This document shows, piece after piece, positions 16,826 through 46,333 of a DNA stretch of 64,000 bases. Under the pieces are notes generated by a model. It was given only the letters and a program-made list of their open reading frames with translations. It did not search any database and was not told the origin of the DNA. How positions within the stretch are numbered: the first letter of the stretch is position 1; every line of letters begins with the position of its first letter. The position numbers and the translations under genes were made by a program. Source of the stretch: Candidatus Omnitrophota bacterium (GTDB lineage: Bacteria; Omnitrophota; Omnitrophia; Omnitrophales; Aquincolibacteriaceae); contig DAOSLF010000002.1 of NCBI GenBank assembly GCA_035368605.1, positions 12,023 through 76,022 on the forward strand. The letters run 5' to 3'.

Positions 16826-16899
16826 GTTTTCCTTTCTTTTTTCGACGGGAGATCACGGCCCCGGGACGCGAGGGTTCACGCCCCGGGAACATGCGATGG

Positions 16900-18123
16900 T
16901 TAAACGGCCGTCGTCACTTTGCAGCAGGCGCAGCCGTCCTTAAGCTTCAGGACTTTGCGGAGCGCGTCAACCTTGTCGGTCTTCTCCCACGTAAAACCGG
17001 CTTCCGAACGGCCGAAATGCCCGTACGCGGCGGTCTTGTTGTAGATCGGACGGAGAAGGTCCAGCGCACTGATGATCCCCCGCGGGGTGAAATCAAAAAC
17101 CTTCGTCACAGCTTCCACGATGGCTTCCTCGCTGATCCTGTTGGTGCCGAAGGTATCCACACGGATCGAAACGGGCTTCGCCACGCCGATCGCATAAGAA
17201 ACCTGTATCTCGCAGCTGCCCGCGAGACCGGCGGCCACGATATTCTTCGCCACATAACGGGCAAAATACGCCGCGGAGCGGTCCACCTTCGACGGATCCT
17301 TGCCGCTGAACGCGCCGCCGCCGTGACGGCCCATGCCGCCGTAGGTGTCGACGATGATCTTGCGGCCGGTAAGCCCGGTGTCCCCGTGGGGACCGCCGAC
17401 CTCGAAACGCCCGGTCGGGTTAATGAAGATTTTCGTGTTTTTGTCCATCAGGTTCGCCGGGATGACTTTCTTGATCACTTTTTCGGTCAGATCCTTCTGG
17501 ATGGTTGAAAGTGTCACATTGCCGTCATGCTGGGAGGAGAGCACCACCGCCTCGACGCGCACCGGCTTTTCGTTCTTGTATTCGACCGTGACCTGGCTCT
17601 TCGAATCCGGACGGAGGTACTTGATCTTGCCGGATTTGCGGACCGCCGTGAGATAGCGGACAAGTTTTTGGGCGAGCATGATCGGGAGCGGCATGAATTC
17701 CGGCGTTTCATCGGTCGCATAGCCGAACATCATGCCCTGGTCTCCGGCACCGCCGGTGTCCACGCCCATCGCGATATCGGGCGACTGGGTGTGAAGCGCG
17801 ACGTCGATCTTGCAGGTCTTGTAGTCAAAACCGATCCTGGAATCCACATAACCGATCTTTTTGATCACGTTACGGGCAACCTTGTCGGCATCGACCTTGC
17901 CTTTACTCGTGATCTCGCCGGCGATCGTCATGCGGTCCGTCGTCGCGAGGCATTCGCAGGCGACGCGGGAGGCCGGATCCTGGGCCAGATAGGCGTCAAG
18001 GATCGCGTCCGAAACCTGGTCACAGACCTTGTCCGGATGTCCCTCAGAAACGGATTCGGAGGTGAAAAAATAATTCCCTTTTTTCATTTTGTTGCTCCTT
18101 TGGTTTATTTTCACTGACTCCAC
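16900..18123 (-). CDS. metK: S-adenosylmethionine synthetase
   Basis: 407 aa. N-terminal [25 protein letters not shown] and a GGGAFSGKD motif. Confidence 0.95.
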
Positions 18124-18144: not shown

Positions 18145-18882
18145 TCATCCGACGATAGCGTTCGCTTTCTGGTAGGAGGCGATGTCGCCGATATCCAGCC
18201 ATTTCCCTTTGAGAGGGAATGCGTAAAGCCCCGAGATCTCGGCAAGCCACCGCATATAATGTCCAGGTTGGTCCGTATTATGGCCCCCCTTGATATAGGT
18301 GTCAAGGAGGCCCCAGATCTCCTTCGGCAGCCAGTAAATGCCGCACGAAGCAAGCGTTGTCTTCGGCTCCGGAGGCTTTTCCTGGAACTCCAGGACCTTC
18401 CCATCCTCCGAGGTCCGCACGAGGCCGTAGCGCTTTGCGAGCTCTCTATCCCCTACGTCGTAGACCGCGATCAAGCCGTGCGGCCGGACCTTCCCGCCGT
18501 AGTCCGTCAACGCCGTCAGATCAAAATCGAAGAAATTATCCCCCGCAATAATCATCAGGTCATCCGGCCGGAGCGCTTTCGCGCGAATCGTGTAGGCCAG
18601 GTCCCCAATGGCCCCGAGCCTCGTCTCATTCGAGGATGTCCCGTCATCAACAACCTCGACCGGCCAGGGATATTTCGCGGAAGCGGCCCACGCCGCGAAA
18701 TGCCCCGCAAACTTCGCGTTGCTCACGATATAGACGGCCTCGATCCCCGAAACCTTCCCGACCCGGTCCAGAATCCATTCGAGAATGGGTCTGCCGCCCA
18801 CGGGAAGAAGGGGTTTTGGCTGGTTCTCGGTCAAGGGATAAAGGCGGGTCGCGTAGCCCGCGCAAAGAAGGATGACTTTCAT
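18145..18882 (-). CDS. Sugar-phosphate nucleotidyltransferase (NTP_transferase family; mannose/heptose-1-phosphate guanylyltransferase-like)
   Basis: 245 aa. N-terminal MKVILLCAGYATRLYPLTENQPKPLLPVGGRPILEW, typical of this family. Confidence 0.8.
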   Translation of the reverse strand: MKVILLCAGYATRLYPLTENQPKPLLPVGGRPILEWILDRVGKVSGIEAVYIVSNAKFAGHFAAWAASAKYPWPVEVVDDGTSSNETRLGAIGDLAYTIRAKALRPDDLMIIAGDNFFDFDLTALTDYGGKVRPHGLIAVYDVGDRELAKRYGLVRTSEDGKVLEFQEKPPEPKTTLASCGIYWLPKEIWGLLDTYIKGGHNTDQPGHYMRWLAEISGLYAFPLKGKWLDIGDIASYQKANAIVG

Positions 18883-19865
18883 TTGATCCCGGGAACGGCT
18901 TTCTTGATGCGGTCGATCACGCAGATGGACATCGGATCGACGCGATTGAGTTTCGCAAGCTCACAGCCCGCCCAGTCGCCAAGCATCACCATCGAGAAGA
19001 TACGCGAGAGGCATTTTTCCCCTTTCGAACGGAACTCCATGACCTCGGCGCCGTTCTCCCGGATCGCGCGCATCGCAACGCGTTTTTTCTTCACGAGCCA
19101 GTCGGGTTCGTTCCGGTCGGTCAGGAAGATCGCGACCGAGCGCCGGACCTTGAAAGCGGGGTAAAGCCAGCCTTCCACCTCGTGGTGGAACATCTCCGGC
19201 AGGGCTTCACAGGAGGCAAGCGTCTTGGCATTTTCGGCAAACTGTGTCCGCCAGCGCATCGCCACGGGCTGAAGGAGACCGCCTCCGTAAATCGCGATGT
19301 TCTTCTGAAAAAGCCTCTTCGCGAGTCCCCTCGCCTCCGCAGACGGGGCCCGGCGAACGGTCCGAAGGACCTCATCGATCTCTTTCCTGGAAACGGAGAA
19401 CCATCGATAGCGCATGAAAAGGAACAGCAGCGAGAAGGTCGTGTAGCCGATCGCAAAACGGGGCGGATACCCCTGGGGCAGTCTGAAGAACGGGATTTTC
19501 CGGGCGGTCGCCTCCTCCGCAAGCCGTCCTCCCGACGCAACGACCAGGAAATGCGCCTTGCGCGCGATCGCCTGGTTCAGGATCGACTCGACCTCCTGGG
19601 TATTCCCGGAATAGCTTGAAAGGATCACGACGGTTTCGGAATCGACCCATTGGGGAAGGCGCGACGTGCGGTTCACGGTCCAGTGGATACGGGATCGGCT
19701 CTGGGCGATCGTCCCGAGAATATCGCCGCTGATAGCGGAACCACCCATGCCGCAAAAAAGCACTTTCGCCGGACGTTTCACGAACGAGGACGGCAGCTTG
19801 ACCGCGGCCGCGATCCTGCGGGCCTTCTCGATCTGGTTGGCAAAATCCCTGAGATAGATCTCCAT
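18879..19865 (-). CDS. Bifunctional phosphoglucose/phosphomannose isomerase (SIS-domain PGI/PMI family)
   Basis: 328 aa with SIS-domain features (VLFCGMGGSAISGDILG, VVILSSYSGNTQEV). Overlaps the upstream gene by 4 nt. Confidence 0.75.
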   Translation of the reverse strand: MEIYLRDFANQIEKARRIAAAVKLPSSFVKRPAKVLFCGMGGSAISGDILGTIAQSRSRIHWTVNRTSRLPQWVDSETVVILSSYSGNTQEVESILNQAIARKAHFLVVASGGRLAEEATARKIPFFRLPQGYPPRFAIGYTTFSLLFLFMRYRWFSVSRKEIDEVLRTVRRAPSAEARGLAKRLFQKNIAIYGGGLLQPVAMRWRTQFAENAKTLASCEALPEMFHHEVEGWLYPAFKVRRSVAIFLTDRNEPDWLVKKKRVAMRAIRENGAEVMEFRSKGEKCLSRIFSMVMLGDWAGCELAKLNRVDPMSICVIDRIKKAVPGIK

Positions 19866-30459: not shown

Positions 30460-31230
30460 TTATACATCCTCCGCGGAGCCCCCCTGGCTGCGGGCCCGTG
30501 CCAGACGCGACTCAACCTCCCGGAGGTCCTCTTCCGTATCCACGCTGATGAAATCAAAATCGGTCTCGATCACGCGAATCTTCCGGCCCCTTTCGAGGAC
30601 CCTGAGCTGCTCCAGTTTCTCGGTCATTTCCAGGACACCGGGTTTCCACGCGACGAATTCCAGAAGGAACCCGCGGCGGTATCCGTAAACACCGAGGTGC
30701 TTCAAAAAGCTGAACTCGCGGTCCTGCTGCCCCTGCGCGTACGGAACCGGGGACCGCGTAAAATAAAGCGCGCATCCGCCTTCATCGCAGACGATCTTGA
30801 CGACATTCGGGTTGGCGAACGCGGCGCGGTCCGTCATGCGGAGGGCGAGCGTCAGCATTTCGGGGACGCGCGAGACCCGGAAAAGCGCCACCATTTCATC
30901 GAGGGCTTTCGGGTCCACAAGCGGCTGGTCGCCCTGGATATTAATCACGATCTCGTGATCGAATTTTCGCATGACCTCCGCGATACGCGAAGTTCCGTTC
31001 GGGTGATCACGTCGGGTCATGACGGCCATGCCGCCGAACCCCCGGACACAGCGCTCGATCCGTTCGTCGTCGCAGGCCACGATCACATCTTCAAGCGACC
31101 GGGCCTTGCGGGCATTCTCCCAGACGTGCTGGATCATGGGTTTGCCGGCGATCGTCCGGAGAATCTTTTCGGGAAGGCGCGTCGAACCAAGACGCGCGGG
31201 AATGACACCGATCGCTTTCATCGCATTCAT
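30460..31230 (-). CDS. kdsB: 3-deoxy-manno-octulosonate cytidylyltransferase (CMP-Kdo synthetase)
   Basis: 256 aa. AIGVIPARLGSTRLPEKILRTIAGKPMIQHV. Confidence 0.9.
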   Translation of the reverse strand: MNAMKAIGVIPARLGSTRLPEKILRTIAGKPMIQHVWENARKARSLEDVIVACDDERIERCVRGFGGMAVMTRRDHPNGTSRIAEVMRKFDHEIVINIQGDQPLVDPKALDEMVALFRVSRVPEMLTLALRMTDRAAFANPNVVKIVCDEGGCALYFTRSPVPYAQGQQDREFSFLKHLGVYGYRRGFLLEFVAWKPGVLEMTEKLEQLRVLERGRKIRVIETDFDFISVDTEEDLREVESRLARARSQGGSAEDV

Positions 31231-32279
31231 GCCTGGCGGATCGCTTCCCTGAGCTCCGCGGGGGAGGCCGTTGCCGTTCCGAGCTTTCCGACCACAATGC
31301 CGGCCGCCATATTGGCAATCTTCGCGGCCTCCTGCATCCTGGCACCCGCCGCGAGCGAGAGCGCGAGCGTTGCGATCACCGTGTCACCGGCACCGGACAC
31401 ATCGTAAACCTCACGGGCCGCGGTCGGAACCTTCGTGATCTTGCCGCCCCTCTCGAAAAGGGCCATACCGTCCTCGCCAAGCGTGATCAGAACGGACCCG
31501 AGCCTGAGCTTTTTTATAAGCGCCCAGCCGACCTGTTCAAGGTCCGGCATTTTACGCCGGTATCCGACCATCCTTTCATATCCCCCGTACGCTTCCTTGC
31601 GGTTCGGAGTGATACAGGTCACGCCGGTATAATAATCGAAATGTTTCTCCTTGGGGTCCACCAAGACGGGCTTTTTGAGCTTTTTGCAGAGTTTCACGAC
31701 TTCGCGCAGGAGAAAGGGTTGCATGACGCCCTTGCCGTAATCTTCGAGGATCACGACATCGATCTCCCGGATCTTCTGCTTCACAAATTTAAGAATCTTG
31801 TCGAGATTCGAACGCGACACATCCCCGGTCCTTTCGCGGTCGAAGCGGACCATTTGCTGGGAGTGCGCGATCACACGCGTTTTGAGCGTCGTGGGCCGGG
31901 TGGGGTCATAAACGATGCCGCCGGTCTCGATCCCCTGCTGGCGTATGGCCTTGAGCAACATCCGCCCGTACAGATCACGACCGACCACCCCGCAGGGATA
32001 CGCCTTCCCCGAAAGGGACCTGATGTTGTGAGCGACATTCAGCGACCCTCCGGGCATGTAGGATTCGCGCTTAACGTCAACGACAGGAACGGGGGCCTCG
32101 GGAGAAATCCGGGAAACACTCCCCCAGACGAACTGGTCAAGGATGAAATCCCCGATCACAAGAACATGCGCCGCATGGAATCCCGCCACAATACCGAGGA
32201 AGCGCCTTTTTTCTGCCGGAGTAAGCATATTGCCCATTGGTTGTCCCGTCATCTCCGCCCAAGCGGAGACCTTCATCAT
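31227..32279 (-). CDS. hldE: D-glycero-beta-D-manno-heptose-7-phosphate kinase (HldE/RfaE kinase domain only; PfkB family)
   Basis: 350 aa. HVLVIGDFILDQFVWGSVSRISPEAPVPVVDV closely matches RfaE domain I. No adenylyltransferase domain is attached. Confidence 0.85.
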   Translation of the reverse strand: MMKVSAWAEMTGQPMGNMLTPAEKRRFLGIVAGFHAAHVLVIGDFILDQFVWGSVSRISPEAPVPVVDVKRESYMPGGSLNVAHNIRSLSGKAYPCGVVGRDLYGRMLLKAIRQQGIETGGIVYDPTRPTTLKTRVIAHSQQMVRFDRERTGDVSRSNLDKILKFVKQKIREIDVVILEDYGKGVMQPFLLREVVKLCKKLKKPVLVDPKEKHFDYYTGVTCITPNRKEAYGGYERMVGYRRKMPDLEQVGWALIKKLRLGSVLITLGEDGMALFERGGKITKVPTAAREVYDVSGAGDTVIATLALSLAAGARMQEAAKIANMAAGIVVGKLGTATASPAELREAIRQA

Positions 32280-34451: not shown

Positions 34452-35492
34452 TTAAACCCCGATTGGCCGGTGTTCTTCCGCGACGCCGGGCTGGTACTCG
34501 ATCAATGTCGCGGTCACGTCGCCAAGAACGGGAATTTTCACCTTCAGGACAAGCGGGACGCGGCGGTCGTCCAGGCTCATCCATCCGCGGACCTTTCCGC
34601 GGCGGACGAAGAAACCTTCGAACAGGATGACGGGCTCGACTTCGACCGCCTCGAAGACGCCGATCCCCCCGATCGTCATCTCCTTCGTCCCGTGCGCCAG
34701 CACCTCAAGGTCCCAGTTCTTCTCGTCGGCATTGACCGGAATCGAGGCCTTCGTGCCCGGTTTCACGTCGAGCGTCCGGTAATAATAACCGCAGGAGATC
34801 TGGTCCTGGACATTCTTCGGGATGAACATCTCCTTGCGGCTGTTATCTTTTTTCGAGAAAAACCGGCCAAGATGCTCCGCCTGGTCATACTCCATCACCT
34901 CGTCGGTCCAGTACCGCCCCTCATGCACGGTCTTCTCATACCGGAGCGAGCAAAGGTTTTGGACATCAACATAGGAGTGGTGCGTGTCCCGGACCTTATA
35001 GATCCAGTCAAGAACGGGTTTTGACCGGATATTGATCTCGATGTGGTAAGCGTCACGCCCGTTGACCGCGACGATTTCTTTGACAACGGACTCAGCTTCG
35101 CCGACCGTGATTCCGGCGTAGGTCACCTTGAACTTCAGTTTCTCTCCGACAAAAAACCGCGCCGGCGGTTTCCCGGAGGGAGGGAAAATCTTTTCCGGCT
35201 TGGCGGCATGGACATTCGCGGAAAGAAACATCGCCAGGAACAACGCCCCCCACCGGCGGCCGGTGTTCGCCGGGGATGAGCGCCGGACGCCGGCGGGATA
35301 CGCGGCTTTCATAGACGGATAGCTCCTTCTCGTTCCCCCGCACGCGCCCATCCCGTCGCGGAAGATCTCTTGCGCGAGCGCCGCTCCCTTGCCCTGATCG
35401 GGGACCAGCGTCCCTTCCGCGCCGGACGTGGCACAAAGTCCGCGTCCGTTGTGTTTTTTTCTGTCGATTTCGATGACCTTTCGTTTCGCCAT
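34452..35492 (-). CDS. DUF3108-like periplasmic or membrane-anchored protein; start codon ambiguous
   Basis: An in-frame ORF with no stop back to 35564. A plausible ATG at 35490-35492 lies 4 nt after the upstream GT9 stop. A hydrophobic Tat-like signal or anchor (TGRRWGALFLAMFLSANVHA) sits ~95 aa in, so an alternative start at MKAAYPAG (~35309) is possible. DUF3108 assignment is from recall. Confidence 0.4.
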   Translation of the reverse strand: MAKRKVIEIDRKKHNGRGLCATSGAEGTLVPDQGKGAALAQEIFRDGMGACGGTRRSYPSMKAAYPAGVRRSSPANTGRRWGALFLAMFLSANVHAAKPEKIFPPSGKPPARFFVGEKLKFKVTYAGITVGEAESVVKEIVAVNGRDAYHIEINIRSKPVLDWIYKVRDTHHSYVDVQNLCSLRYEKTVHEGRYWTDEVMEYDQAEHLGRFFSKKDNSRKEMFIPKNVQDQISCGYYYRTLDVKPGTKASIPVNADEKNWDLEVLAHGTKEMTIGGIGVFEAVEVEPVILFEGFFVRRGKVRGWMSLDDRRVPLVLKVKIPVLGDVTATLIEYQPGVAEEHRPIGV

Positions 35493-35496
35493 GATC

Positions 35497-36597
35497 TCAA
35501 CCCTTTTGCGGGAACCCCCCGCTAAATACCCGCTCGATCTGTTCAAGCGCTTCTTCGGGGGCAAGCGTTTTCAGGCAAGCAATGGTCGGACAATCCTTTT
35601 TGAAACGGAATTTATAATAGCAGGGACGGCAGGCAAGGTCCTGTTTAAAGACCGCCGCCGCATCCGGGGAAACGGGATAAGGTCCGTACACCTCGGGCGG
35701 CACGGGACCGTAAAAAGCGACCAGGGGCACCTCAAGGGCGCGGGCCAGATGGACCAGCCCGCCGTCGTTCCCGACAAAAAGCGAGGACTTTTGAAGGAGG
35801 ACCGCTGTTTCCGCGATCGTCGTCTCCCCCGCCAGGACGACAACCGGCAGACCGAGCGCATTCTTGAGCTGTCCGCACAATTCGGTCTCAGCCTTGCTTC
35901 CCACAATGCACACACCCTCAAATCCGTACTTTTTCTGCATCATCCCGATCAGGACCGCATAATTCCCGACAGGCCACCGCTTGAAATCCGCTTCCCGCCC
36001 CCATGAGTCGCCTCCGCCGGGACTGACCGTGATGAATTTGCGGCCAAGCGCGGCCGTCCGTTGCGCCATTTTCTTTTCAAGCTCCGCCTTCTCCGGCGGA
36101 AAATAATATTCAAGGAACCGGTCCGCGACCGGGATTCCCGCCGCTTCCGCGAGACCCGCGTAAAAATCCGCGGCATGCTGTTTCCAATAACCTTCGGGAA
36201 GCGGATAGCGAACATTATGAAAAACCGCGCGGCGCTTGTACGCAAACCCCGCGCGCTTCGGAATACCGAGGAAGGCGAGAGACCAAAAAGCGTTTTCAGG
36301 CCTCAGCGAAAAATCGAGCAGGAGGTCATACCGTTTCGCCCGAAGCTTCATCCCGAGGTCCAGGAGCTCCCGGAATTTCCGGGTACGGGTCTGGCGGCGG
36401 AGCTTGTCCTTGTCGAGCACGAAGATCCCGTTCACGTGCGGGTTGTGCTCCACCACTTCGAGGGTCCGGGACCCGATCAGGAGATCGACAGTCTCGACCG
36501 CCGGGAGCAGTCGGAGGGCGCGCAGGACCGGCGTCACGAACAAAAGGTCCCCGATCCCGTACGGGTGAACGACCAGAACGCGCCGCAGGGTCCTCAT
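35497..36597 (-). CDS. Glycosyltransferase family 9 (LPS heptosyltransferase-like), copy 1
   Basis: MRTLRRVLVVHPYGIGDLLFVTPVLRALR..., a typical GT9 N-terminus. ATG at 36595-36597 overlaps the upstream GT9 stop (ATGA). Confidence 0.85.
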   Translation of the reverse strand: MRTLRRVLVVHPYGIGDLLFVTPVLRALRLLPAVETVDLLIGSRTLEVVEHNPHVNGIFVLDKDKLRRQTRTRKFRELLDLGMKLRAKRYDLLLDFSLRPENAFWSLAFLGIPKRAGFAYKRRAVFHNVRYPLPEGYWKQHAADFYAGLAEAAGIPVADRFLEYYFPPEKAELEKKMAQRTAALGRKFITVSPGGGDSWGREADFKRWPVGNYAVLIGMMQKKYGFEGVCIVGSKAETELCGQLKNALGLPVVVLAGETTIAETAVLLQKSSLFVGNDGGLVHLARALEVPLVAFYGPVPPEVYGPYPVSPDAAAVFKQDLACRPCYYKFRFKKDCPTIACLKTLAPEEALEQIERVFSGGFPQKG

Positions 36598-37697
36598 TTC
36601 AGACCTCCGCCTTCCACACCCCTCCACCCCCGGGAGCTAGACCCGGGGTCTAGCTCCCGGGGGTGGAGCAGGTCGGAAACGGCACGATGAACTTCGTCCA
36701 CAGTGATGTCTTCGATGTAAGTGTATTTTCTTTCGGACGCGGGAATATCGCTCACATCTTTCGCCACAACCCTGCATTTTGTACCGAGAGGTTTCCAGCG
36801 GTCGGGCCCAAGACCGGGTTCATGGCGCCCGAAGATCGAGACGACGGGACAACCGACCGCCGTCGCGATATGGACGGGCCCGGAATCATTGGAAACAAGC
36901 AGCGCGGCCCTCTTCAGGAGCGCCCCGAGCATCCCAAGGGTCAGCTTCCCCCCCAGATCCACGATGGGCACCGCACTCTTCTCCCGAAGACTTTCAACGA
37001 CCGGCTTGTCCTTGAGCGATCCGACCGCCAGAAGAACGGCCCCCGCTTCTTTCTGAAGCCGCGCGGCCAGCTCCGCAAATTTCGCGGCAGGCCACATCTT
37101 GGTCCTGTCGCTCGCCGAGGGACTGAGAACTATCAGTTTTTTGTCCGCGGGAACTTTTAAATGAAACAGGAGGTTCTCAAGGGAGCGCGCGGCGCTTCCG
37201 GACACCGGGAAACAGGCCTCGATCTTCCCGGGACAGGCGATCCCGAGCGGCGCGAGAAGGTCGAAGAGATATTCGGTCTCCCGCTTCTCGCCGAGTTTTT
37301 TGTCGTAGGCATGCGCGTGCGTGAGCGCCCACGGAGCGCGGCGATCATACCCGAGACGGACGGGAACGCCGGCAAGCCATCCCGCAAGATGCATCCGGTT
37401 CGTGCCATGGCAGTGGATCACAAGATCGAACTTCTTCGCGCGGAGCCGCACGGAAAAACAGAATTGTCCCCAGAGACCTTTTTCGCTTCCCTTTTTATCG
37501 TAAAGGATCACCTCATCAAGATACGGATTGTCCTTCACGATGTCCCGATGCTCGATAAAAACAAGCGCGGCGATCCACGCCTTCGGGAACCGTTCCCGGA
37601 GCGCCTGAAAGACCGGCGTCGTGAGCACAAGGTCCCCGATCCGGTCCGTCCGCGTGACAAGGATCTTTGGATTTACAGGAAGATGAACCGGTTTCAT
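36594..37697 (-). CDS. Glycosyltransferase family 9 (heptosyltransferase-like), copy 2, with a 22-aa C-terminal tail encoded through a 47-bp palindrome
   Basis: ILVTRTDRIGDLVLTTPVFQALRERFP GT9 motif. The canonical C-terminus (VDEVHRAVSDLL) is followed by HPRELDPGSSSRGWRGVEGGGLK, which spans the palindrome. Confidence 0.85.
   Translation of the reverse strand: MKPVHLPVNPKILVTRTDRIGDLVLTTPVFQALRERFPKAWIAALVFIEHRDIVKDNPYLDEVILYDKKGSEKGLWGQFCFSVRLRAKKFDLVIHCHGTNRMHLAGWLAGVPVRLGYDRRAPWALTHAHAYDKKLGEKRETEYLFDLLAPLGIACPGKIEACFPVSGSAARSLENLLFHLKVPADKKLIVLSPSASDRTKMWPAAKFAELAARLQKEAGAVLLAVGSLKDKPVVESLREKSAVPIVDLGGKLTLGMLGALLKRAALLVSNDSGPVHIATAVGCPVVSIFGRHEPGLGPDRWKPLGTKCRVVAKDVSDIPASERKYTYIEDITVDEVHRAVSDLLHPRELDPGSSSRGWRGVEGGGLK
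36622..36668. repeat. Near-perfect 47-bp palindrome (23-bp arms, 1-nt spacer): CTCCACCCCCGGGAGCTAGACCC g GGGTCTAGCTCCCGGGGGTGGAG
   Basis: Verified base by base. It lies inside the 3' coding end of GT9 copy 2, about 30 nt upstream of the GT9 copy 1 start. Both strands therefore encode the peptide HPRELDPGSSSRGW. Confidence 0.8.
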
Positions 37698-38671
37698 GGG
37701 ATCAAAAGCTCCCTGCAGAGTTTCAGAACCGCCCCGGAATCCAATCCGTGGAAGCAACTGCGTTCAGCGTAGGGCAGGAGATGTGACTGACAGGCGCAAT
37801 TCGCCGCGTCTCCCGTTGCGATCCTGAAACCAGGGCCTTCGTGACCGTATTTTTCATGGTCCGTCGGGCCAAAAAGTCCTATCGTCGGCGTCCCGGTTTC
37901 GTAACCGAGATGCATGATCGCGCTGTCGTTCGCGATCACAAGCGCCGCTTTCGAAATAAGACAGGCGGTCCCGGAAAGGGTCATATCGCCGGAAAGGATT
38001 TTCACGGACGCGGGCATCCCTTTCGCGACCGCCTCCGCGATCGGCCGTTCGTCTCCGGAACCGATCAGACAGATCGTTTTCCCGGTCTTCAAGGCCAGAT
38101 CACGCACCACCTCCCGGAAGGATTCCGCGGGCCATCGTTTTCGACTGCTCGCGGCGCCGGGCGCGACCAGAATCCAGCCCGACCTCTCCCGGATTCCGAG
38201 CGCTTCGAGTTTTTCGGCGACGGATGTCTCGTCAGCGGTGTCAAAGAAACGGAACGGAACGGGCGACGCGGCCGGGAGCCCCATCATCGAAAGAACCTCG
38301 AGATGCCGGTCCCGCATGTTGACCTTTCGGTACTTCCGGAACAAGGGACTGCGGCGCGGGGCAAGCACGAGGAACGGGATCGCGGTGTTACGGAGATCAA
38401 CCGCCATGTCATAGCGGTCCTTCCGGAGCTCCCGCAGGAACGCCCACTTGCCGCGAAGATTTGCCTTCTTGTCATAAACGACGACACGGCGGAGGTCCGG
38501 GCTTTTTTCAAGAATGCTTTTCGCCTTCGGCCCGACAACCACCGTGATCCGCGCGGCCGGGAACCTTGCGCGAAGTGCCATGATCACCGGTGTCGTCAAC
38601 ACGACATCGCCGATATTGCTGAGCGTCACAACAAGGATGCTTTCAGGATCCTGAGCCATCGGGGAAAGCAC
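37694..38671 (-). CDS. Glycosyltransferase family 9 (heptosyltransferase-like), copy 3
   Basis: ILVVTLSNIGDVVLTTPVIMALRARFP. Its stop overlaps the copy 2 start (ATGA). The start is either the GTG at 38671 or the ATG at 38659. Confidence 0.85.
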   Translation of the reverse strand: MLSPMAQDPESILVVTLSNIGDVVLTTPVIMALRARFPAARITVVVGPKAKSILEKSPDLRRVVVYDKKANLRGKWAFLRELRKDRYDMAVDLRNTAIPFLVLAPRRSPLFRKYRKVNMRDRHLEVLSMMGLPAASPVPFRFFDTADETSVAEKLEALGIRERSGWILVAPGAASSRKRWPAESFREVVRDLALKTGKTICLIGSGDERPIAEAVAKGMPASVKILSGDMTLSGTACLISKAALVIANDSAIMHLGYETGTPTIGLFGPTDHEKYGHEGPGFRIATGDAANCACQSHLLPYAERSCFHGLDSGAVLKLCRELLIP

Positions 38672-39704
38672 CTAATTGTTGGACCGCTTCAAAGACCTCA
38701 TCGGGCGTGATCCCGGAAAGCCAGCCATCCCCGGGGAGGTCCTTGCCGAAGAACGGGATCGAATAACCCGGCGGGACATACTGCAGGACGATCGATTCGC
38801 CGACACCGCGCGGTCCGGTAAGATCGGGGTCCGTGGGACCGAAGATCGCGGCCACGCGCGCCCCGACACCGGAAGCGATATGCATCGGCCCGGAATCCCC
38901 CGTCACAAGACATGTCGCGTGTTTGTAAATACAGGCGGAGACCCGGAGCGGCGTCTTTCCGACCAGATCGATCACGCGCAATTCGTCAGCCCCGGGCGCT
39001 CCCAGGCGGCGAAGTGATTTCAGAAAATCCATGAAAAGGGTTCGGTCCCCCGCGGAACCCGTCACCACAATCGGGATCTTCCACTTCGCGTGAACCATGG
39101 AGGCAAGTACCGCAAAATGCTCCACCGGCCAGCGTTTTGGCTTCCAGTTCGCTCCAAGATGGAAACAGACATACCGCGCGCCGTCCGTGAGCCCGTTCTG
39201 CCGGAGGACCTCGCGGGCCTCCCGGTCGTCTCCGGGTGTGAAATAAAAGCGGGACTTCGGCTCGATGGGCGTTTCATAACCGGCGCCCTTCATGAGGGTC
39301 ATAAAGTAGTCCAGCTGATGGAGCTTCCCGTCCGGCTCCCGGACCGCCGTCGTGAGGAAAAGGCTCCGCCCTTTTCCGTAGCCGGTGCGTTTTTTCACCC
39401 CCGCGAGACAAAGCATGACAGCCCGCGAACGGGAACGGTGGAAAAGATAACCTTCATCCCAGGGGCCGAGTTTCCGGAGCCGGAAAACGAAACCAGCCCG
39501 GGAGAACCAGGAGCGATGCGTGGATTTTTCGTCGAATGGAAGGAATCCGGCGACCGCCGGATGCGCTTCGAGAATCGCGCGGCAACGTTCCGGCGCGACG
39601 CAGAAAATCTCAGCCCCGGGATAGCGGCTCTTGATCACCTCAAGCGCCGGCATCTGGAAAAGCAGATCGCCGAGCCAGTTCTTCATCACGACAAGTATTT
39701 TCAC
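38643..39704 (-). CDS. Glycosyltransferase family 9 (heptosyltransferase-like), copy 4
   Basis: MKILVVMKNWLGDLLFQMPALEVIKSRYP. GTG start at 39702-39704. Confidence 0.85.
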   Translation of the reverse strand: MKILVVMKNWLGDLLFQMPALEVIKSRYPGAEIFCVAPERCRAILEAHPAVAGFLPFDEKSTHRSWFSRAGFVFRLRKLGPWDEGYLFHRSRSRAVMLCLAGVKKRTGYGKGRSLFLTTAVREPDGKLHQLDYFMTLMKGAGYETPIEPKSRFYFTPGDDREAREVLRQNGLTDGARYVCFHLGANWKPKRWPVEHFAVLASMVHAKWKIPIVVTGSAGDRTLFMDFLKSLRRLGAPGADELRVIDLVGKTPLRVSACIYKHATCLVTGDSGPMHIASGVGARVAAIFGPTDPDLTGPRGVGESIVLQYVPPGYSIPFFGKDLPGDGWLSGITPDEVFEAVQQLGAFPDGSGS

Positions 39705-39822
39705 ACTGTCAGAGATGCTTCAAGACATCTCTCCTCCGTTTTAAAACCGTTAAAATCTTTCTCAAACAAACCCGCCCGCAAGATCACGGCCCCGCCAAAG
39801 GCGTGACCTGACCCGAACGGGG

Positions 39823-41919
39823 TCATGCCTCAAGAAACCTTTTGGCGGTGTCAAAAACCTCATCCACCGAAATGTGGGCCAGGCATCCCATCGTCTCCTT
39901 TTCCTTGCAGACCCCGCTGTAGCAGGGCTGGCATGGGAGGTTCCGCATGAACACGGCGATCTTTTTCGCCGGCGGGACATGACGCTTCGGGTCCGTCGGG
40001 CCGAAGATCGCGGCGATCGGGACATGCATCGCGGCCGCGACATGGAGAAGGGCCGTGTCCCCGGAGACTACGAAATGCAGCTTTTGGAAGAACGCGGGCA
40101 GGTCCTCGATCCCGGTCTTCCCGATCAGGTTCACGACCCGGTCCGGGTCGAAGTCGCGGAATTCATTCGCAAGCTCCGCTTCGCCGGGCGAACCGAAAAG
40201 AAGAATCCGCGCGTCGTAGCGGTCAAAGATCCGTTCCGCGAGCTTCCGGTAATGCGCCGCCGGCCACCGCTTGGTCGGCCACTTGGGACTCGATCCCATC
40301 ACGAAACCGATGACCTTCGTATCGGCCTTGAGATCGAGCGAAAGAAGGACACGCTCCGCCTTTTCGACCTGCTCCTTGCCGGGCCAGAGCTCCAGCGTAT
40401 CATCATAGTCCTGGACTCCGGCCTTGGAGATCACCCGGAACTGGTGGCGGACCGGTTCTGCCGCGATCCGGAACGTCTTGTCGGGACGGTTCAGGAGTGA
40501 GCCCCAAAACCCGCGCGCGAACCCGTACCGCCGGATCGCGCCGCCGAGATACGCAAGGAGATACGTGTACTTGTTATTGTGAAGATCGACCGAAACGTCG
40601 AAGTTTTCCCGCCGCACGCGACGGGCTGTCTTCAGAAGATAGAGAGGGTTCGGAAACTTCTTCCGGTCGACCAGGATCATGTCGTCGAGGTAGGGGCAAT
40701 CCGCCATGATCCGCGAAAGCCGTTTATCGACGAGAAGCGTGATCGATGCGTCGGGGTACCGTTCCTTCAGCATCCGGAGGCTCGGCACCACAAGGACGAG
40801 GTCCCCCATCGCTCCCAGTTTGATTACGAGAATCTTTTTCTTCTTCCGGACCTCCTGGTAGACCTCGACGGTCTTCCGGACCATCTGCCCGAGCGCGAAC
40901 TTCTCCTCGATCTTCTTCCGCAGGGCAGTCGCGTATTCCCTTGCCTTTGCGCGATCCGTCAGCATCTCATACATGGCCTCCGCCATCGCGGTCACGCTTT
41001 TCGGCGGAAAGAGGAAACCGTTCACGCCGTGGTCGATGATGTCCGTGACACCCCCGAGCCACGTCGCGGCCACGGGCGTGCCGACCGCGCCGGCCTCGAT
41101 GATGACGCGACCGAAGGGTTCCGGAAGCGTGGAGGAGAGTACGAGCAGGTCGGACTGCGCGAGCAATCCCGGCACATCCCGTGACGGACCGGGCAGTTGA
41201 ACGCAGGACTCAAGGGCAAATTGCTGGATTGTCTTCCGGATCAGTTTCGTGTACTGGGTCCGGCCGCGGTTCTCGGCGCCGACCAGCCACACCTCGAAGT
41301 TCGGGAGGCGGCTCCGCAGGAGGTGGATCGCTTTCAGGAACTCGACCTGCCCCTTGTTCGGCGAGAAACGACCGACATGGATGATCCGGAATTTCCGGGG
41401 TTTTTCGTCGAAACGCTTGAGGGAAAAATGAAACTGGGAAAGATCGACGCCCCGCGGGATCAGGCGAATGCGGTCCTGGGGGACGCCGAACTCGTCGATC
41501 ATCCGCCGGCCGATCGCATTGGAAACAACGATCACGCGTTTCCCATACCCCATGACAAAGCTGAGCGGCTGCAGCGAATAATAGCCGTGACAGGTCGTGA
41601 CAAAGGGAACGCCGGTCTTCCGCGACGCGAGCCAGCCGATCCACCCCGGGACACGGCTGCGCGCGTGGATAATGTCGATCCGTTCGCGTTCGATGATCTT
41701 CACGATCTGGTCCACGAGGAGCAATGACGCGAGCGATTTCTGATGCACGGGAAGGCCGTAATGCGGGACGCCCATGCGGTGGAGTTCCGACACAAGCGAA
41801 CCGCCGGAAGAAACGACGACCGCTTCGTGCCCTTCTTTTTTCAGCGCGCGGGCGAGGTCCACCACCCCGCGTTCGACGCCTCCGACTTCAAGACTCGGCA
41901 ACAACTGGAGGATCTTCAT
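39823..41919 (-). CDS. Bifunctional glycosyltransferase: N-terminal GT4 domain fused to a C-terminal GT9 heptosyltransferase-like domain
   Basis: 698 aa. The N-terminus (MKILQLLPSLEVGGVERGVVDLARAL, ending in EAGAVGTPVAATWLGG) is GT4. Residues ~380-698 (KKILVIKLGAMGDLVLVVPSLRMLKERYP...) are GT9. Confidence 0.8.
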   Translation of the reverse strand: MKILQLLPSLEVGGVERGVVDLARALKKEGHEAVVVSSGGSLVSELHRMGVPHYGLPVHQKSLASLLLVDQIVKIIERERIDIIHARSRVPGWIGWLASRKTGVPFVTTCHGYYSLQPLSFVMGYGKRVIVVSNAIGRRMIDEFGVPQDRIRLIPRGVDLSQFHFSLKRFDEKPRKFRIIHVGRFSPNKGQVEFLKAIHLLRSRLPNFEVWLVGAENRGRTQYTKLIRKTIQQFALESCVQLPGPSRDVPGLLAQSDLLVLSSTLPEPFGRVIIEAGAVGTPVAATWLGGVTDIIDHGVNGFLFPPKSVTAMAEAMYEMLTDRAKAREYATALRKKIEEKFALGQMVRKTVEVYQEVRKKKKILVIKLGAMGDLVLVVPSLRMLKERYPDASITLLVDKRLSRIMADCPYLDDMILVDRKKFPNPLYLLKTARRVRRENFDVSVDLHNNKYTYLLAYLGGAIRRYGFARGFWGSLLNRPDKTFRIAAEPVRHQFRVISKAGVQDYDDTLELWPGKEQVEKAERVLLSLDLKADTKVIGFVMGSSPKWPTKRWPAAHYRKLAERIFDRYDARILLFGSPGEAELANEFRDFDPDRVVNLIGKTGIEDLPAFFQKLHFVVSGDTALLHVAAAMHVPIAAIFGPTDPKRHVPPAKKIAVFMRNLPCQPCYSGVCKEKETMGCLAHISVDEVFDTAKRFLEA

Positions 41920-42019
41920 CTGTTCAGAGACACGTCAGCGCATCTCTCCTCTTTTTTGAACGGCCGGTATTTTCAAGCAACATAAATCCTGCGGCGGTCC
42001 TGCGGACGGCAGGACCTGT

Positions 42020-43969
42020 TTATAACAATTCGCCCAGTTTCTGCAACAGGGCATTCTTTTCCCGGTCGATCACCGGGGAGGCTGCCTTGTTCAGAAGTTC
42101 CGCGACGGTCCTCTCCAGGTCCTCGAGACAGCAAAGCGTGACGAGACCCCGCTGGCTCAGCGTCTGGTGAAAGCGGTAATGTTTCGCCGGAAGATCGCCT
42201 TGCCCCGCCACAAGCACGATGACCCTCTTTCCGCTTCCGACCGCCTCCGAGATCATCGCGAGGCTGTCCTCCGTCACGATGATGAGGTCCGCGAGCCCCA
42301 TCATCCCTCCCGCCGCATATGGCGGGTTCTCTTCGTTCGCGACCACAAGATAGCGGCACGCGGGGTCCCGGGAAAGCACGTTTTTCAGAAACTGTTCGAC
42401 GTTTTTGGTCGTCCGCCGCGACGTCGTCACCATGTATTCCAGACCGGAGCGGGACAGGCGCCGCAGGATCATCGCGATTTTTTCGGCGTCCGGGGCCATG
42501 ATGTCATACCCGCGTGTTTTGCCGCCGAGGAAGACCGCGATCCGGATCCGGGAGATATCCCCCACCTTCGCCTTGAGGGCCGCAATGTCACCGGAACGGT
42601 CCACGGCCCGATAGCCGCTCGGCATAATCACGGACCGGAAAGTCCTTTTCGGGACCGGCCCCTCGTCGTGCGCGGGGACAACCGCAAGATCGTAAGGCAT
42701 CAGGGCATACGGGAACGGCGGCTTCATGATAACGACCGTCTTCGCGCCGGTCTCCCTCGCAAGAAGCTGCTGAACCGGGGCAAGACTCGATCCCGCGGTC
42801 ACGATGAAATCCGCGCGGGCGTTCTCGATCGCCCGGTAACTTTCCTCCGTAAGGAACGGCGCGAGCCAGTTCAGCCTCCCCTGGATCCACGGTCTCATCA
42901 GCGGGGCCAGCGCAAAAAGCAGGCTCCGATGACCCGCGGAACGGTATTCGATATGGGCTTTCACAGTCTCGAACTCCAGACCGGGACGGTCGTGGAACTC
43001 CGTGAGCGAGCTCATCATCCCGGCGACAACATCGGACTGCTTGAAGTGCCCGGCCTTGCCGTCCGAGAGGATCAGGATCCTCCGCGACCAGCTGTACTTC
43101 CACCGCTTGTTCTCCCAGAGCCACTGGCCGGGATATTTCGAAATAAACTCCTCGAGCGAGGCCAGGTACTGCCGCGCGACGGACTCGATGCGCTCTTCGT
43201 TCGTGGCGGACGGATCGTCCCTGAGGACATCCCCGACGAAGATCTCATGCCGGGCATGTTCCACCCGGACCATGTAGCACGGCATCAGAAGCGAGCCGGT
43301 CCTCACGGCAAGCTCGAAGGCCCCCGTCGGGACCGATGTTTTTATGCCGAAGAAAGGAAGGATGATCCCTTCCGTTTTCCCCGCCGACTGGTCGGCGAGC
43401 ACGCCGATCAGTTTACCTTCCTTGAGGGCCCGTACAAGACTGCGGATACCCGCGCCGCGGCTGACCGCGACCGAACCGTGCGTTTCCCGGAGCTTGTTCA
43501 AGAGCTCGTTCAACCTCGGGTATTTCTGGTCGCGCGCAAGCACATGGATCGGTGTTCCCCGGAGCCCGGCGACAACCTGCAAAAGTTCCCAGTTCCCGAA
43601 GTGTCCCGTCAGGAGCACGCCCCCCTTGCCGGATTTCGCCAACGCCTCGAACTTTTCGAGACCGTGAATCCGGATGTTCTGCCCGATATGCGCCGGTGTC
43701 AGTTTCGGAAAGCTCATGATCTCGACGATGTTTTGGGCCATGAGTCCGTAGTGATCGCGCACGGCCTTCCACCGGGCGCGCGGGGTCAAACGCTCACCGA
43801 GCGCGTTTCGGAGGTTCACGTAAGCAACGCGCCGTTTCCCGGAAAGATAAAAAACGCCTTTTCCGAACGCGTCACCGATCCGGAGGCTGGTCGCGAGAGG
43901 AAGGCGCGCGAAGCAGGCGATCAGGACGCGGGCGATCCCGTAAGCGATCAGATCGAGGGCTTTTTCCAT
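42020..43969 (-). CDS. Fusion protein: N-terminal LpxL/HtrB-family lipid A acyltransferase plus a C-terminal ELM1/GtrOC1-like (PF06258-type) putative glycosyltransferase domain
   Basis: 649 aa. Residues 1-300 carry the GHFGNWELLQVVAG acyltransferase motif; residues ~300-649 resemble the DUF1022/ELM1 family. The ELM1 call is from recall. Confidence 0.7.
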   Translation of the reverse strand: MEKALDLIAYGIARVLIACFARLPLATSLRIGDAFGKGVFYLSGKRRVAYVNLRNALGERLTPRARWKAVRDHYGLMAQNIVEIMSFPKLTPAHIGQNIRIHGLEKFEALAKSGKGGVLLTGHFGNWELLQVVAGLRGTPIHVLARDQKYPRLNELLNKLRETHGSVAVSRGAGIRSLVRALKEGKLIGVLADQSAGKTEGIILPFFGIKTSVPTGAFELAVRTGSLLMPCYMVRVEHARHEIFVGDVLRDDPSATNEERIESVARQYLASLEEFISKYPGQWLWENKRWKYSWSRRILILSDGKAGHFKQSDVVAGMMSSLTEFHDRPGLEFETVKAHIEYRSAGHRSLLFALAPLMRPWIQGRLNWLAPFLTEESYRAIENARADFIVTAGSSLAPVQQLLARETGAKTVVIMKPPFPYALMPYDLAVVPAHDEGPVPKRTFRSVIMPSGYRAVDRSGDIAALKAKVGDISRIRIAVFLGGKTRGYDIMAPDAEKIAMILRRLSRSGLEYMVTTSRRTTKNVEQFLKNVLSRDPACRYLVVANEENPPYAAGGMMGLADLIIVTEDSLAMISEAVGSGKRVIVLVAGQGDLPAKHYRFHQTLSQRGLVTLCCLEDLERTVAELLNKAASPVIDREKNALLQKLGELL

Positions 43970-45015
43970 TATCGTTTGATCCCCAGGAGCCGCAGCAGAC
44001 GGTCGGTCAGGATTTCTTCTCCCGAACGGACCCGGATGCGCGCCGCGAGCACGAGCGGGTTCAGAACCCTGGAGATCAGATCCCGCGAACGGTAAAAATC
44101 TTTCTCGGTGGTAATCACTTCCTCCACTCCCGCGGAACGGCTGATCTCCCTGATCTCGGCGAGCTCGTTCTCGATGTATTCGTGATGATCGAGGAACTCG
44201 AAATTGCGGACGGTCTTGACGCTTGCGCGCTGGAGTACCAGCTGGAAGGATCGCGGCGTCCCGACGGCCGCGAACGTCGCTACCTTTTTGCTCTGAAGCT
44301 TGTCGAGCGACATACGGGCGCGGTTCCTCGCCCGATAAAAAAAGAGCGGCTCCATGTAAGCTTCCACGAACTGCGCCTGCGGCGAGAACTTCTGGATCTT
44401 CGCGCGAATCGCCTTCAGGGTATCCGAGGCTACGAGGTTCACGTGCGTGAGAACAACGATATGGGCCTTTTTCAGGACAGACAGCGGCTCACGGAGAATT
44501 CCCCTTGGGATGAGCTTTTCATTACCGAACGGGTTGAGCGAATTCACCACGACGATCTCGCAGTCGCGTTCGACCGAGGTATGCTGGAGCCCGTCATCGA
44601 GGATCGCGATATCGATCGGCTTTTCCTTATGGAGCCGGAGCGCCGCGGCGGCGCGGTCCTTGCCGACCCCGATCACCACGGTGGGCATATGGTGCCGGAA
44701 CTCCTCGACCTCATCGTGATTATAACCGCGGGTCAGGATCAAGGGGGTCTTGCGGATCGACGCGATCTTCCGCGCGATGAACTCCACAAGCGGCGTCTTG
44801 CCGGTGCCGCCCCACGTGAGATTGCCGACGCTTATGACCGGGAACGGCAGTTTCGCGCGTTTGAGAATCCGGCTCTCATGACCCCACCGGGAAAGGCGGG
44901 CGCCCGCCCCGTAAAAAAGGGACGCGAAACCGAGGATCGGGCCGAGGGCCCGCGACGCCGCGTCATGACATTTTCCCTCCGCAACCAGCCGAAAATAGTT
45001 TTTCAGATTTTCCAT
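43969..45015 (-). CDS. lpxK: Tetraacyldisaccharide 4'-kinase
   Basis: 348 aa with a P-loop (VISVGNLTWGGTGKTPLVEF). Confidence 0.85.
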   Translation of the reverse strand: MENLKNYFRLVAEGKCHDAASRALGPILGFASLFYGAGARLSRWGHESRILKRAKLPFPVISVGNLTWGGTGKTPLVEFIARKIASIRKTPLILTRGYNHDEVEEFRHHMPTVVIGVGKDRAAAALRLHKEKPIDIAILDDGLQHTSVERDCEIVVVNSLNPFGNEKLIPRGILREPLSVLKKAHIVVLTHVNLVASDTLKAIRAKIQKFSPQAQFVEAYMEPLFFYRARNRARMSLDKLQSKKVATFAAVGTPRSFQLVLQRASVKTVRNFEFLDHHEYIENELAEIREISRSAGVEEVITTEKDFYRSRDLISRVLNPLVLAARIRVRSGEEILTDRLLRLLGIKR

Positions 45016-46333
45016 CGACCTTGGTCCTTTCTATCCCCCTCCGGGCCGCGAGAAAGGTCAGGACCCATCCGGCCTGACGTTTGCTCGCCCCCCGAAGGCG
45101 GCTGACGATCTGGTTCGCTTTGATGCCCGCCTCGCGGCGCAGGGCCGGATCCGACAGGAACTTCTCTGACAATGCCGTTAGGTCCCCCGGTTCCCGAACA
45201 AGAAAAGCCCCGCCGCCCCGATCGAGCTCGCGGTAGATCAAGTTAAAATTAAAAACATGCGGCCCGTGCATCACGGCCCGATCGAAGCGCGCGGCCTCGA
45301 CCGGATTTTGTCCGCCGTGCGGAATAAAGCTTCCGCCCATGAACACGAGATCCGCGGTCCGGTAAAGATATTTCAGTACTCCAAGCTGGTTAAGGATCAA
45401 AACATCAAAACTTCCCGCGACGGGCGCCGGCACCGAAAGCGCGGTGCGGCATCCGGCCGACGCAAGCTTTCCCGCAAGGTCTTCCGAACGCTCGATATGA
45501 CGCGGCGCGATGACCATCTTCAGCGCCGGGAACTTCACTTTGAGCTGTCGAAAAACCTCCGCGAGAATCTCCTCCTCACCGGGGTGCGTGCTGCCGGCCA
45601 CGAACACCGGATCTGTCATCCCGAACCCGAAGCGCTTCCTCAGTTCTTCCGGCGAGGGTCCGTCCTTCCCCTCCGCCGCCACCTGATCAAATTTCATGTT
45701 CCCCATCTCACGGACGGCTTCCCGGGGGACGCCGAGCGCCCGAAACCGGCCGGCATCTTCTTCCGTCTGAGCCAGGACAAAACCGATCCCGGCCCAGATA
45801 TTTTTCAGAAAAAATCCGGCCGCTCGGTAACGGCCGAAGGATTTTTCGGAAAGACGCCCGTTCACGATCCCGACAGGGATATTCCGCCGTTTCGCCTCGC
45901 TCAAAAGGTTCGGCCAGACCTCCGTTTCGGCAAGCAGCACGGCCTCCGGACAAATCGTGTCAAAACACCTCCGCACCGCGAACGTCAGATCGAACGGAAA
46001 ATATCCGACGCGGACCCGCCGGCCCGCGAGCTTCTGCGCGATCTTCTGCCCCGTCGGGGTTACCGTTGTCAGAACGATATCAAGGCGCGGGTCCTGTTCC
46101 AGGAGTTCCGTGACGAACCTTTCGACGGCGTTCACTTCCCCCACGCTCACCGCGTGGAGCCACACCGTCCGTTGCCCTTCCGTTCGGACCTTCCAGGAAT
46201 CCGGGAGACGCCCCCACCGTTCGCGCCAGAGCCGATCGGGATCGTCCGCGAGCTTGATTTTCACGAGAAAGACGGGAAGATAAAAGATCCCGAAGACCGC
46301 GAACGCCAGATTGTAGAAAATCGAGCTTAACAT
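44963..46333 (-). CDS. waaA: 3-deoxy-D-manno-octulosonic acid (Kdo) transferase
   Basis: 456 aa. WLHAVSVGEVNAVERFV and overall KdtA/WaaA similarity. Overlaps lpxK by 53 nt. Confidence 0.85.
   Translation of the reverse strand: MLSSIFYNLAFAVFGIFYLPVFLVKIKLADDPDRLWRERWGRLPDSWKVRTEGQRTVWLHAVSVGEVNAVERFVTELLEQDPRLDIVLTTVTPTGQKIAQKLAGRRVRVGYFPFDLTFAVRRCFDTICPEAVLLAETEVWPNLLSEAKRRNIPVGIVNGRLSEKSFGRYRAAGFFLKNIWAGIGFVLAQTEEDAGRFRALGVPREAVREMGNMKFDQVAAEGKDGPSPEELRKRFGFGMTDPVFVAGSTHPGEEEILAEVFRQLKVKFPALKMVIAPRHIERSEDLAGKLASAGCRTALSVPAPVAGSFDVLILNQLGVLKYLYRTADLVFMGGSFIPHGGQNPVEAARFDRAVMHGPHVFNFNLIYRELDRGGGAFLVREPGDLTALSEKFLSDPALRREAGIKANQIVSRLRGASKRQAGWVLTFLAARRGIERTKVDGKSEKLFSAGCGGKMS

Follow-up and report, generated by a model that had tools for sequence, protein, structure and literature searches.

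Within a 64,000-nucleotide window of Candidatus Omnitrophota DNA (contig DAOSLF010000002.1; all coordinates are positions in the window unless a related locus is named), five glycosyltransferase family 9 (GT9) domains lie in a contiguous block on the minus strand at 41919–35497, and the first of them is fused to a complete glycosyltransferase family 4 (GT4) module. This region is probably the core-oligosaccharide section of a lipopolysaccharide (LPS) operon, in which the GT9 and GT4 enzymes would build the core. This reading follows from the setting of the block, which is embedded in the series waaA-lpxK-lpxL...hldE(kinase)-kdsB-pyrG-kdsA-kdsD-lpxL2-lptC-lptB. Given that the waaA, lpxK, lpxL, hldE kinase, kds and lpt genes are all found on the same strand, the claim of an earlier note on this DNA, that the block encodes LPS-core glycosyltransferases, is supported. 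The layout is a phylum-wide lineage signature and represents a lineage-specific variant of a well-known system, not a new kind of system. The phylum Omnitrophota is widespread and uncultivated and has among its members very small, possibly host-dependent cells; to our knowledge nothing is known experimentally of their cell envelope.

Domains were assigned with Pfam and NCBIfam profiles. All five GT9 domains scored well above the PF01075 gathering score of 22 bits (86.8–116.8 bits), in agreement with the earlier note, which had also described a 698-residue protein (41919–39823) combining one of them with an entire GT4 enzyme. This, too, was confirmed, with PF13439 (119.8 bits) and PF00534 (112.5 bits) both matching the N-terminal half. 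The GT4 module (retaining, GT-B fold) comprises residues 1–359 (40843–41919), and the GT9 module comprises residues 360–698 (39823–40842; PF01075, 114.3 bits over residues 430–675). Four stand-alone genes follow: GT9b (38643–39704; 353 residues from a GTG start; 86.8 bits), GT9c (37694–38659; 321 residues from the ATG at 38659, the most plausible start; 95.1 bits), GT9d (36594–37697; 367 residues from the ATG at 37697; 116.8 bits) and GT9e (35497–36597; 366 residues from the ATG at 36597; 107.9 bits). The ATGA overlaps said to link these genes were observed between c and d (37697/37694) and between d and e (36597/36594), but b and c overlap by 17 nucleotides, and a 118-nucleotide spacer separates the fusion gene from GT9b. 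Similarly, the N-terminal motif R..IGD..L/TPV described for the four stand-alone proteins is present as IGD..TPV in c, d and e, but reads LGD..MPA in b; the fusion has MGD..VPS, and the general form is xGDxxxxxP. A scan for consensus promoters and terminators revealed no convincing terminator on the coding strand inside the glycosyltransferase block.

The conserved block opens with waaA (44963–46333; minus strand, as for all genes in this paragraph), which encodes a transferase of 3-deoxy-D-manno-octulosonic acid (Kdo), matches NCBIfam NF004388 with 318.9 bits (E = 3.7e-95), short of the 438-bit equivalog cut-off, and also lies 5' of lpxK in related loci. The lpxK gene (43969–45015), for the lipid A 4'-kinase, was identified by PF02606 (219.4 bits). 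The position given in the earlier note, downstream of waaA-lpxK and upstream of the hldE kinase, is correct in outline, but a gene for an LpxL-type late acyltransferase fused to an ELM1 domain (42020–43969; 649 residues; PF03279, 142.4 bits; PF06258, 138.2 bits) intervenes between lpxK and the fusion gene, and genes for a DUF3108 protein, an FmdB-type zinc-ribbon protein and a DUF1846 protein separate GT9e from the kinase gene. The latter (31227–32279) encodes a heptose-7-phosphate kinase, a stand-alone HldE domain I (TIGR02198, 388.4 bits, above the cut-off of 345). Past it, on the same strand, lie kdsB, pyrG, kdsA, kdsD, a second lpxL, lptC/A and lptB.

In the proposed pathway, WaaA would place Kdo on a lipid A precursor to whose synthesis LpxK and LpxL contribute, after which the five GT9 enzymes (inverting, GT-B fold) and the GT4 module would extend the core stepwise on the cytoplasmic side of the inner membrane. 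Export of the finished product would fall to the Lpt machinery, whose genes come later on this strand. The GT9 donor would most likely be ADP-L-glycero-β-D-manno-heptose, supplied in part via the heptose-7-phosphate kinase of the operon. The GT4 half of the fusion would most likely add an α-linked hexose beside the heptose set by its GT9 half, and these steps would parallel the successive reactions of WaaF and WaaG in Escherichia coli. Here, we infer that LPS is the acceptor and that all five GT9 domains use heptose, as well as the order of action and the GT4 sugar.

Conservation and gene fusion in related loci

Scanning one genome per species yielded 80 related loci of ∼20 kb each, at 40–82% identity and all from Omnitrophota metagenome-assembled genomes (MAGs). 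Assignment of open reading frames (ORFs) by best hit gave nearly everywhere the order waaA-lpxK-lpxL::ELM1-GT4::GT9-b-c-d-e-DUF3108-(DUF1846)-hldE kinase-kdsB-pyrG. Copies were counted in the 55 loci with the whole glycosyltransferase block on the contig: five GT9 domains are present in 34 of the 55, four in 17 and two in 4. GT9e is the paralogue most often missing, being the one absent from 16 of the 17 four-domain loci. The two-domain loci keep the GT9 module of the fusion and GT9b, which is the sole GT9 beside that module to be present in all 55 complete loci. In the deep clade L054–L080, an additional stand-alone GT4 gene lies 3' of the GT4::GT9 gene, and a 27%-identical fusion homologue (P0190) is found in the context dprA-topA-xerC-waaA-lpxK-lpxL::ELM1-GT4::GT9-GT4-deacetylase-GT9-GT9::GT9.

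The records of eight loci with full Omnitrophota-type synteny (L062, L064, L068, L069, L070, L072, L076 and L080) are titled “uncultured Planctomycetia bacterium”, labels that may be wrong. In locus L084, the fusion is only 27% identical, and the order dprA-topA-xerC-waaA-lpxK-...-hldE kinase-kdsB-pyrG is nevertheless kept, an unusually deep synteny.

Neighbouring GT9 genes are themselves fused in a number of lineages, giving single ORFs of ∼620–830 residues. The b::c fusion was observed in seven loci (L023, L024, L027, L029, L030, L032 and L035), c::d in eight (L059, L061, L064, L070, L071, L072, L077 and L080) and d::e in two (L009 and L034). Given their recurrence in independent MAGs, assembly frameshifts are disfavoured as the source of these ORFs, though single cases may remain. 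That different pairs of adjacent genes have been fused argues, more strongly than any other sequence-based evidence, that the enzymes work one after another on a single acceptor.

The EX7E pair of the GT4 half of the fusion (E267/E275) is invariant across 60 homologues. The GT4::GT9 fusion was modelled with AlphaFold2 using 60 homologues, and the model has a mean predicted local distance difference test score of 90.2 and a predicted template modelling (TM) score of 0.82, with no low-confidence or disordered linker: a GT4 helix (residues 343–359) runs directly into a GT9 strand (residues 362–366), and the junction is thus predicted to be rigid. With Foldseek, the GT4 half aligned with GT4 structures at TM scores of 0.82–0.86 on the target, its closest solved chains being 7MI0 (sequence E = 2.3e-51; TM 0.84 on target), HepE and BshA; the GT9 half matched 3TOV and 1PSW, the latter being E. 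coli WaaF. None of the solved chains matched by Foldseek spans both halves (TM on query ≤0.47). At least 120 full-length fusion homologues with 52–82% identity were retrieved; those with names are all Candidatus Omnitrophota or Omnitrophica, apart from one unclassified “bacterium”. In a search of a representative library for the fusion outside Omnitrophota, full-length matches in one stretch reached down to ∼25–30% identity. Two proteins considered as reversed or three-module relatives of the fusion (P0152 and P0197) proved to be GT4-GT4 proteins of unrelated polysaccharide loci. Public databases already list the proteins of the cluster under automatically assigned names, “lipopolysaccharide heptosyltransferase II” being one example, and no study of this Omnitrophota cluster was found in the literature searched.

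Active sites, donor and acceptor of the GT9 domains

The five domains were aligned with WaaC, WaaF, WaaQ and WaaU of E. coli (NC_000913.3). Using the numbering of E. coli heptosyltransferase I (HepI), equivalents of G12-D13, of K192 within K(R/M)WP, of an acidic residue at E222, and of D261 and H266 are kept in all five. A survey of 305 GT9 segments taken from the 80 related loci extended this result: D13, K192, W194, D261 and H266 are kept in essentially every orthologue of all five groups (about 40–79 per group). Mutation of D13, K192 or D261 cripples HepI, and these residues are present in all E. coli heptosyltransferases (PMC5713226). The published LPS heptosyltransferase signature, D(T/S)(G/A)xxH (PMC3559599), fits the fusion (DTALLH), GT9b (DSGPMH), GT9c (DSAIMH) and GT9d (DSGPVH). 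Among solved structures, the best relatives by sequence are 3TOV (E = 1e-26 with GT9d, 2.8e-27 with the fusion and 1.1e-16 with GT9e) and 1PSW.

The GT9 module of the fusion also contains a four-cysteine motif (C663/C666/C671/C679; CxxC...C...C) C-terminal to its FGPTDP motif, kept in 78 of 79 fusion orthologues. The same motif is found in GT9e (37 of 40 orthologues). In c and d it varies, no GT9b orthologue matches it, and E. coli WaaC, WaaF, WaaQ and WaaU lack it. In the fusion and in GT9e, it is probably a structural metal site.

Several results weigh against the assignment of the block to heptosyl transfer in the LPS core. Only the GT9 module of the fusion passes any NCBIfam heptosyltransferase equivalog cut-off, with 149.4 bits against 134.6 for TIGR02195 (heptosyltransferase II, HepII). 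With this profile, GT9b, GT9c and GT9e score 117.6, 110.7 and 120.4 bits, all below the cut-off; the best NCBIfam match of GT9d is to TIGR02201 (heptosyltransferase III, HepIII) with 134.4 bits against a cut-off of 170.2, and none of the five domains is near the HepI cut-off of 185.3 (TIGR02193). A neighbour-joining tree of 81 sequences, including E. coli WaaC, WaaF, WaaQ and WaaU, gave no supported pairing of any GT9 group with any of these enzymes (bootstrap <10%). Given this result and the single score above an equivalog cut-off, HepI, HepII and HepIII roles are not assignable. In GT9e the signature reads DGGLVH, with a clade-specific glycine (39 of 40 orthologues) at the second position, where described heptosyltransferases have Thr or Ser; judged by sequence, this departure could mean a different donor. 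Neither the window nor the 80 loci gave a match to gmhA, gmhB or the heptose-1-phosphate adenylyltransferase gene, an absence that says little given that only ∼20 kb per genome was covered. Finally, LPS chemistry for Omnitrophota was not found in the literature searched, LPS or heptose appearing in one passing mention.

In an alternative reading, the block would build the LPS core, but only two or three of the GT9 enzymes would transfer heptose; the others, GT9e above all, would have shifted to another nucleotide sugar, so that the core would be branched and not heptose-rich. GT9 in CAZy does include a GlcNAc-transferase activity. Mixed donors would be consistent with the four domains of five below every heptosyltransferase cut-off and with the GT9e glycine at a Thr/Ser signature position (PMC3559599), and the four minimal loci would then hold a HepI/HepII pair in the fusion GT9 and GT9b, to which c, d and e are add-ons. 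By contrast, K192, D261 and H266 of the donor lobe are kept in all five groups, and the sugar-activation genes tied to the cluster are those for heptose and Kdo only; mixed donors seem somewhat unlikely. The corresponding proposal of a heptose-rich core is a reasonable hypothesis, though one that can be put forward only tentatively on the sequences at hand. Likewise tentative is the full version of this proposal, a phylum-specific heptose-rich core of up to five heptoses plus a hexose, made by a physically coupled glycosyltransferase assembly line with a rigid bifunctional GT4::GT9 enzyme. Were it true, the conserved fusion would carry out inverting heptosyl and retaining hexosyl transfer at adjacent positions, and different lineages would have fused different neighbours of the assembly line (GT4::GT9, b::c, c::d, d::e and LpxL::ELM1).

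With respect to donor supply, the kinase gene lies 3 kb downstream of the GT9 block and covers residues 8–313 of E. coli HldE only (tblastn). The earlier note had called for a search for GmhA, GmhB and the HldE adenylyltransferase; none was found at the scope given above, and it is the kinase alone that the window provides. One relative, L054, has a gene for ADP-glyceromanno-heptose 6-epimerase (16499–17467; TIGR02197, 391.8 bits; cut-off, 274.6) after the GT9 block and before the kinase gene, at the place taken in the window by the DUF3108, zinc-ribbon and DUF1846 genes. On this genomic evidence, ADP-heptose as the GT9 donor is supported only in part. Elsewhere in the window (18145–19865, minus strand), a gene for a 328-residue sugar isomerase (SIS) protein, similar to phosphoglucose and phosphomannose isomerases below their cut-offs and weakly similar to GmhA (E = 7e-5), adjoins one for a 245-residue sugar-1-phosphate nucleotidyltransferase with no equivalog assignment. 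The two genes may contribute to the supply of sugar nucleotides, as far as their sequences indicate.

It is improbable that the GT9 block glycosylates a non-LPS acceptor (a surface glycoprotein, for instance, or a different membrane glycolipid) and simply lies in one operon with the lipid A genes. No direct evidence bears on the acceptor, and the DUF3108 protein encoded 3' of the block has no known function, both of which leave room for this explanation. Against it stand the tight, ancient linkage to waaA, lpxK and lpxL, the phylum-wide translational coupling or overlaps, and the fact that the GT9 enzymes matched here whose structure or biochemistry is defined, those of the bacterial autotransporter heptosyltransferase (BAHT) type aside, are all LPS enzymes.

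The BAHT type itself was raised in the earlier note: some copies might be protein O-heptosyltransferases resembling TibC or Aah that hyperglycosylate an autotransporter. This reading was rejected as very improbable. A faint TIGR04414 match was found for GT9e only (21 bits, E = 1.4e-4), and the four-cysteine motif late in the C-lobe of the fusion GT9 and GT9e loosely recalls the iron finger of TibC (PMC4358343), but the TIGR04414 cut-off is 200 bits, the cysteine spacing is unlike that of TibC, and no TibC chain was present among the PDB sequence matches of the fusion, GT9d and GT9e at E ≤ 0.001. In TibC, a β-barrel of ∼97 residues precedes the catalytic domain (PMC4358343); here, the catalytic Asp is at residue 12–45 of the stand-alone proteins and, at D373, directly after the GT4 module of the fusion, leaving no space for such a barrel. 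Moreover, the cluster contains no autotransporter gene, the neighbours of the block being LPS genes and the DUF3108, zinc-ribbon and DUF1846 genes.

The chance that the copies are recent tandem duplicates in decay is negligible, given that nothing besides the tandem arrangement itself speaks for it and that the five domains are mutually 22–28% identical (about as distant from the E. coli enzymes), form five phylum-wide clades and have intact reading frames and kept catalytic residues. Each positional group was monophyletic in the tree (bootstrap: fusion GT9, 95; b, 77; c, 87; d, 100; e, 84), and identity from one group to another is 24–28%. The low identity between paralogues, together with the five orthologue clades, indicates that the genes had been duplicated before the phylum radiated. 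By these sequence measures, all five copies are ancient, under purifying selection and catalytically intact-looking. The earlier note had named recent, pseudogenising duplication as what would refute its idea; instead the copies are old, and their catalytic residues are kept at ∼100%.

With the block taken as an LPS-core section, the conserved operon leads to the testable prediction that Omnitrophota LPS contains Kdo and may be heptose-rich. The natural gene fusions suggest which glycosyltransferases act side by side, and the predicted bifunctional GT4::GT9 enzyme is a candidate for expression and assay.

Neighbouring elements and comparison with known systems

The gene order described here extends over 24296–52100 of the window, in which xerC, topA and dprA lie 5' of waaA and hpf-ptsN-yvcK-ptsI comes after lptB. 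The DUF3108 gene (34452–35492, minus strand; start uncertain; PF11306, 126.3 bits) encodes a protein whose relatives are mostly ∼250–300 residues long (range 249–382). It is found 3' of the glycosyltransferase block in most loci, often as a tandem duplicate, and the DUF1846 and FmdB zinc-ribbon genes occupy the post-block position only in the closer relatives of the window.

Nearly all related loci, across the phylum, retain the ∼650-residue LpxL::ELM1 fusion. An hhalign comparison of the C-terminal half of ELM1 with the GT9 donor-binding lobe gave a weak match (probability 22%), which sets TEDSxSMISEA of ELM1 on the GT9 donor-lobe motif DSGxxHxAAA. On this alignment, ELM1 may add one more GT-B-like module to the pathway. 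PDB sequence searches revealed no solved relatives of the ELM1 domain or of DUF3108, and literature searches for GtrOC1/ELM1 returned only papers on a yeast kinase.

A ∼120-nucleotide intergenic cassette was observed that fills exactly the distance from a stop codon to the next start codon. The inverted repeats CCCGTTAGAGAC...GTCTCTAACGGG form its borders, and its interior has a GC hairpin, GGAGG and a start-proximal hairpin. Two diverged copies are present on the minus strand of the window, one in the spacer 5' of the fusion gene (41920–42019; GC hairpin, GGAG and start-proximal hairpin) and a second in the 118-nucleotide spacer between the fusion gene and GT9b (39705–39822); others lie in L003 (9879–10000), L011 (9876–10000) and L008 (3113–3235, 5334–5458 and 9721–9840). 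In intact cassettes of relatives, the repeats close a 14-bp stem that brings stop and start together (predicted fold, z = −5.6), whereas the two window copies have z of about −2. The latter share a 26-nucleotide 3' part that occurs nowhere else in the 64 kb (0 matches expected by chance), and the small stem keeps its pairing despite base changes (AGAGATG/CATCTCT versus GAGACG/CGTCTC). An Rfam scan of the window, cassette included, matched no family. The cassette could be an element resembling miniature inverted-repeat transposable elements or repetitive extragenic palindromes, or an RNA device for maintaining translational coupling.

Among known systems, the BAHT enzymes TibC and Aah share with the window domains a distantly related catalytic core that uses ADP-heptose and a Cys4 metal-type motif in the region of the C-lobe. 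The window domains differ from them in having no N-terminal β-barrel, no family-level match and no partner autotransporter. By fold, matches were obtained to the Veillonella parvula GT9 protein 3TOV (TM 0.83–0.86 on target) and to E. coli WaaF (1PSW; TM 0.80 on target), both of which, unlike the fusion, are single-domain proteins.

The waa locus of E. coli K-12 draws on the same families and the same GT-B fold (WaaC, WaaF, WaaQ and WaaU are GT9; WaaG is GT4). It has the same D13, K192, D261 and H266 residues, and D(T/S)(G/A)xxH is shared by four of the five window domains. Four GT9 genes lie in this one locus, compared with five domains in the window, and both sets adjoin waaA; identity is 15–25%, with no one-to-one orthology. 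Unlike in E. coli, the five GT9 domains are contiguous and co-directional, the GT4 and one GT9 form a single polypeptide, the late acyltransferase is fused to ELM1, and homologues of the heptose kinases WaaP and WaaY were not found in the window.

The earlier note had regarded five GT9 domains as unusual beside the typical two or three. Their number does exceed the “up to four” given in a review (PMC5713226), but E. coli K-12 already has four, and six predicted heptosyltransferases have been studied in Actinobacillus pleuropneumoniae (PMC3559599). That organism has a heptose-rich core, and its WahF carries the variant S(T/S)(G/A)xxH, an instance of signature drift in active enzymes (PMC3559599). 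The A. pleuropneumoniae proteins are not described there as a tandem block or as fusions, and their activities were tested experimentally (PMC3559599), whereas those of the window set are predicted from sequence. Thus, five contiguous GT9 domains are at the high end but within known biology, and for LPS biochemistry the Omnitrophota cluster extends a known theme and overturns nothing.

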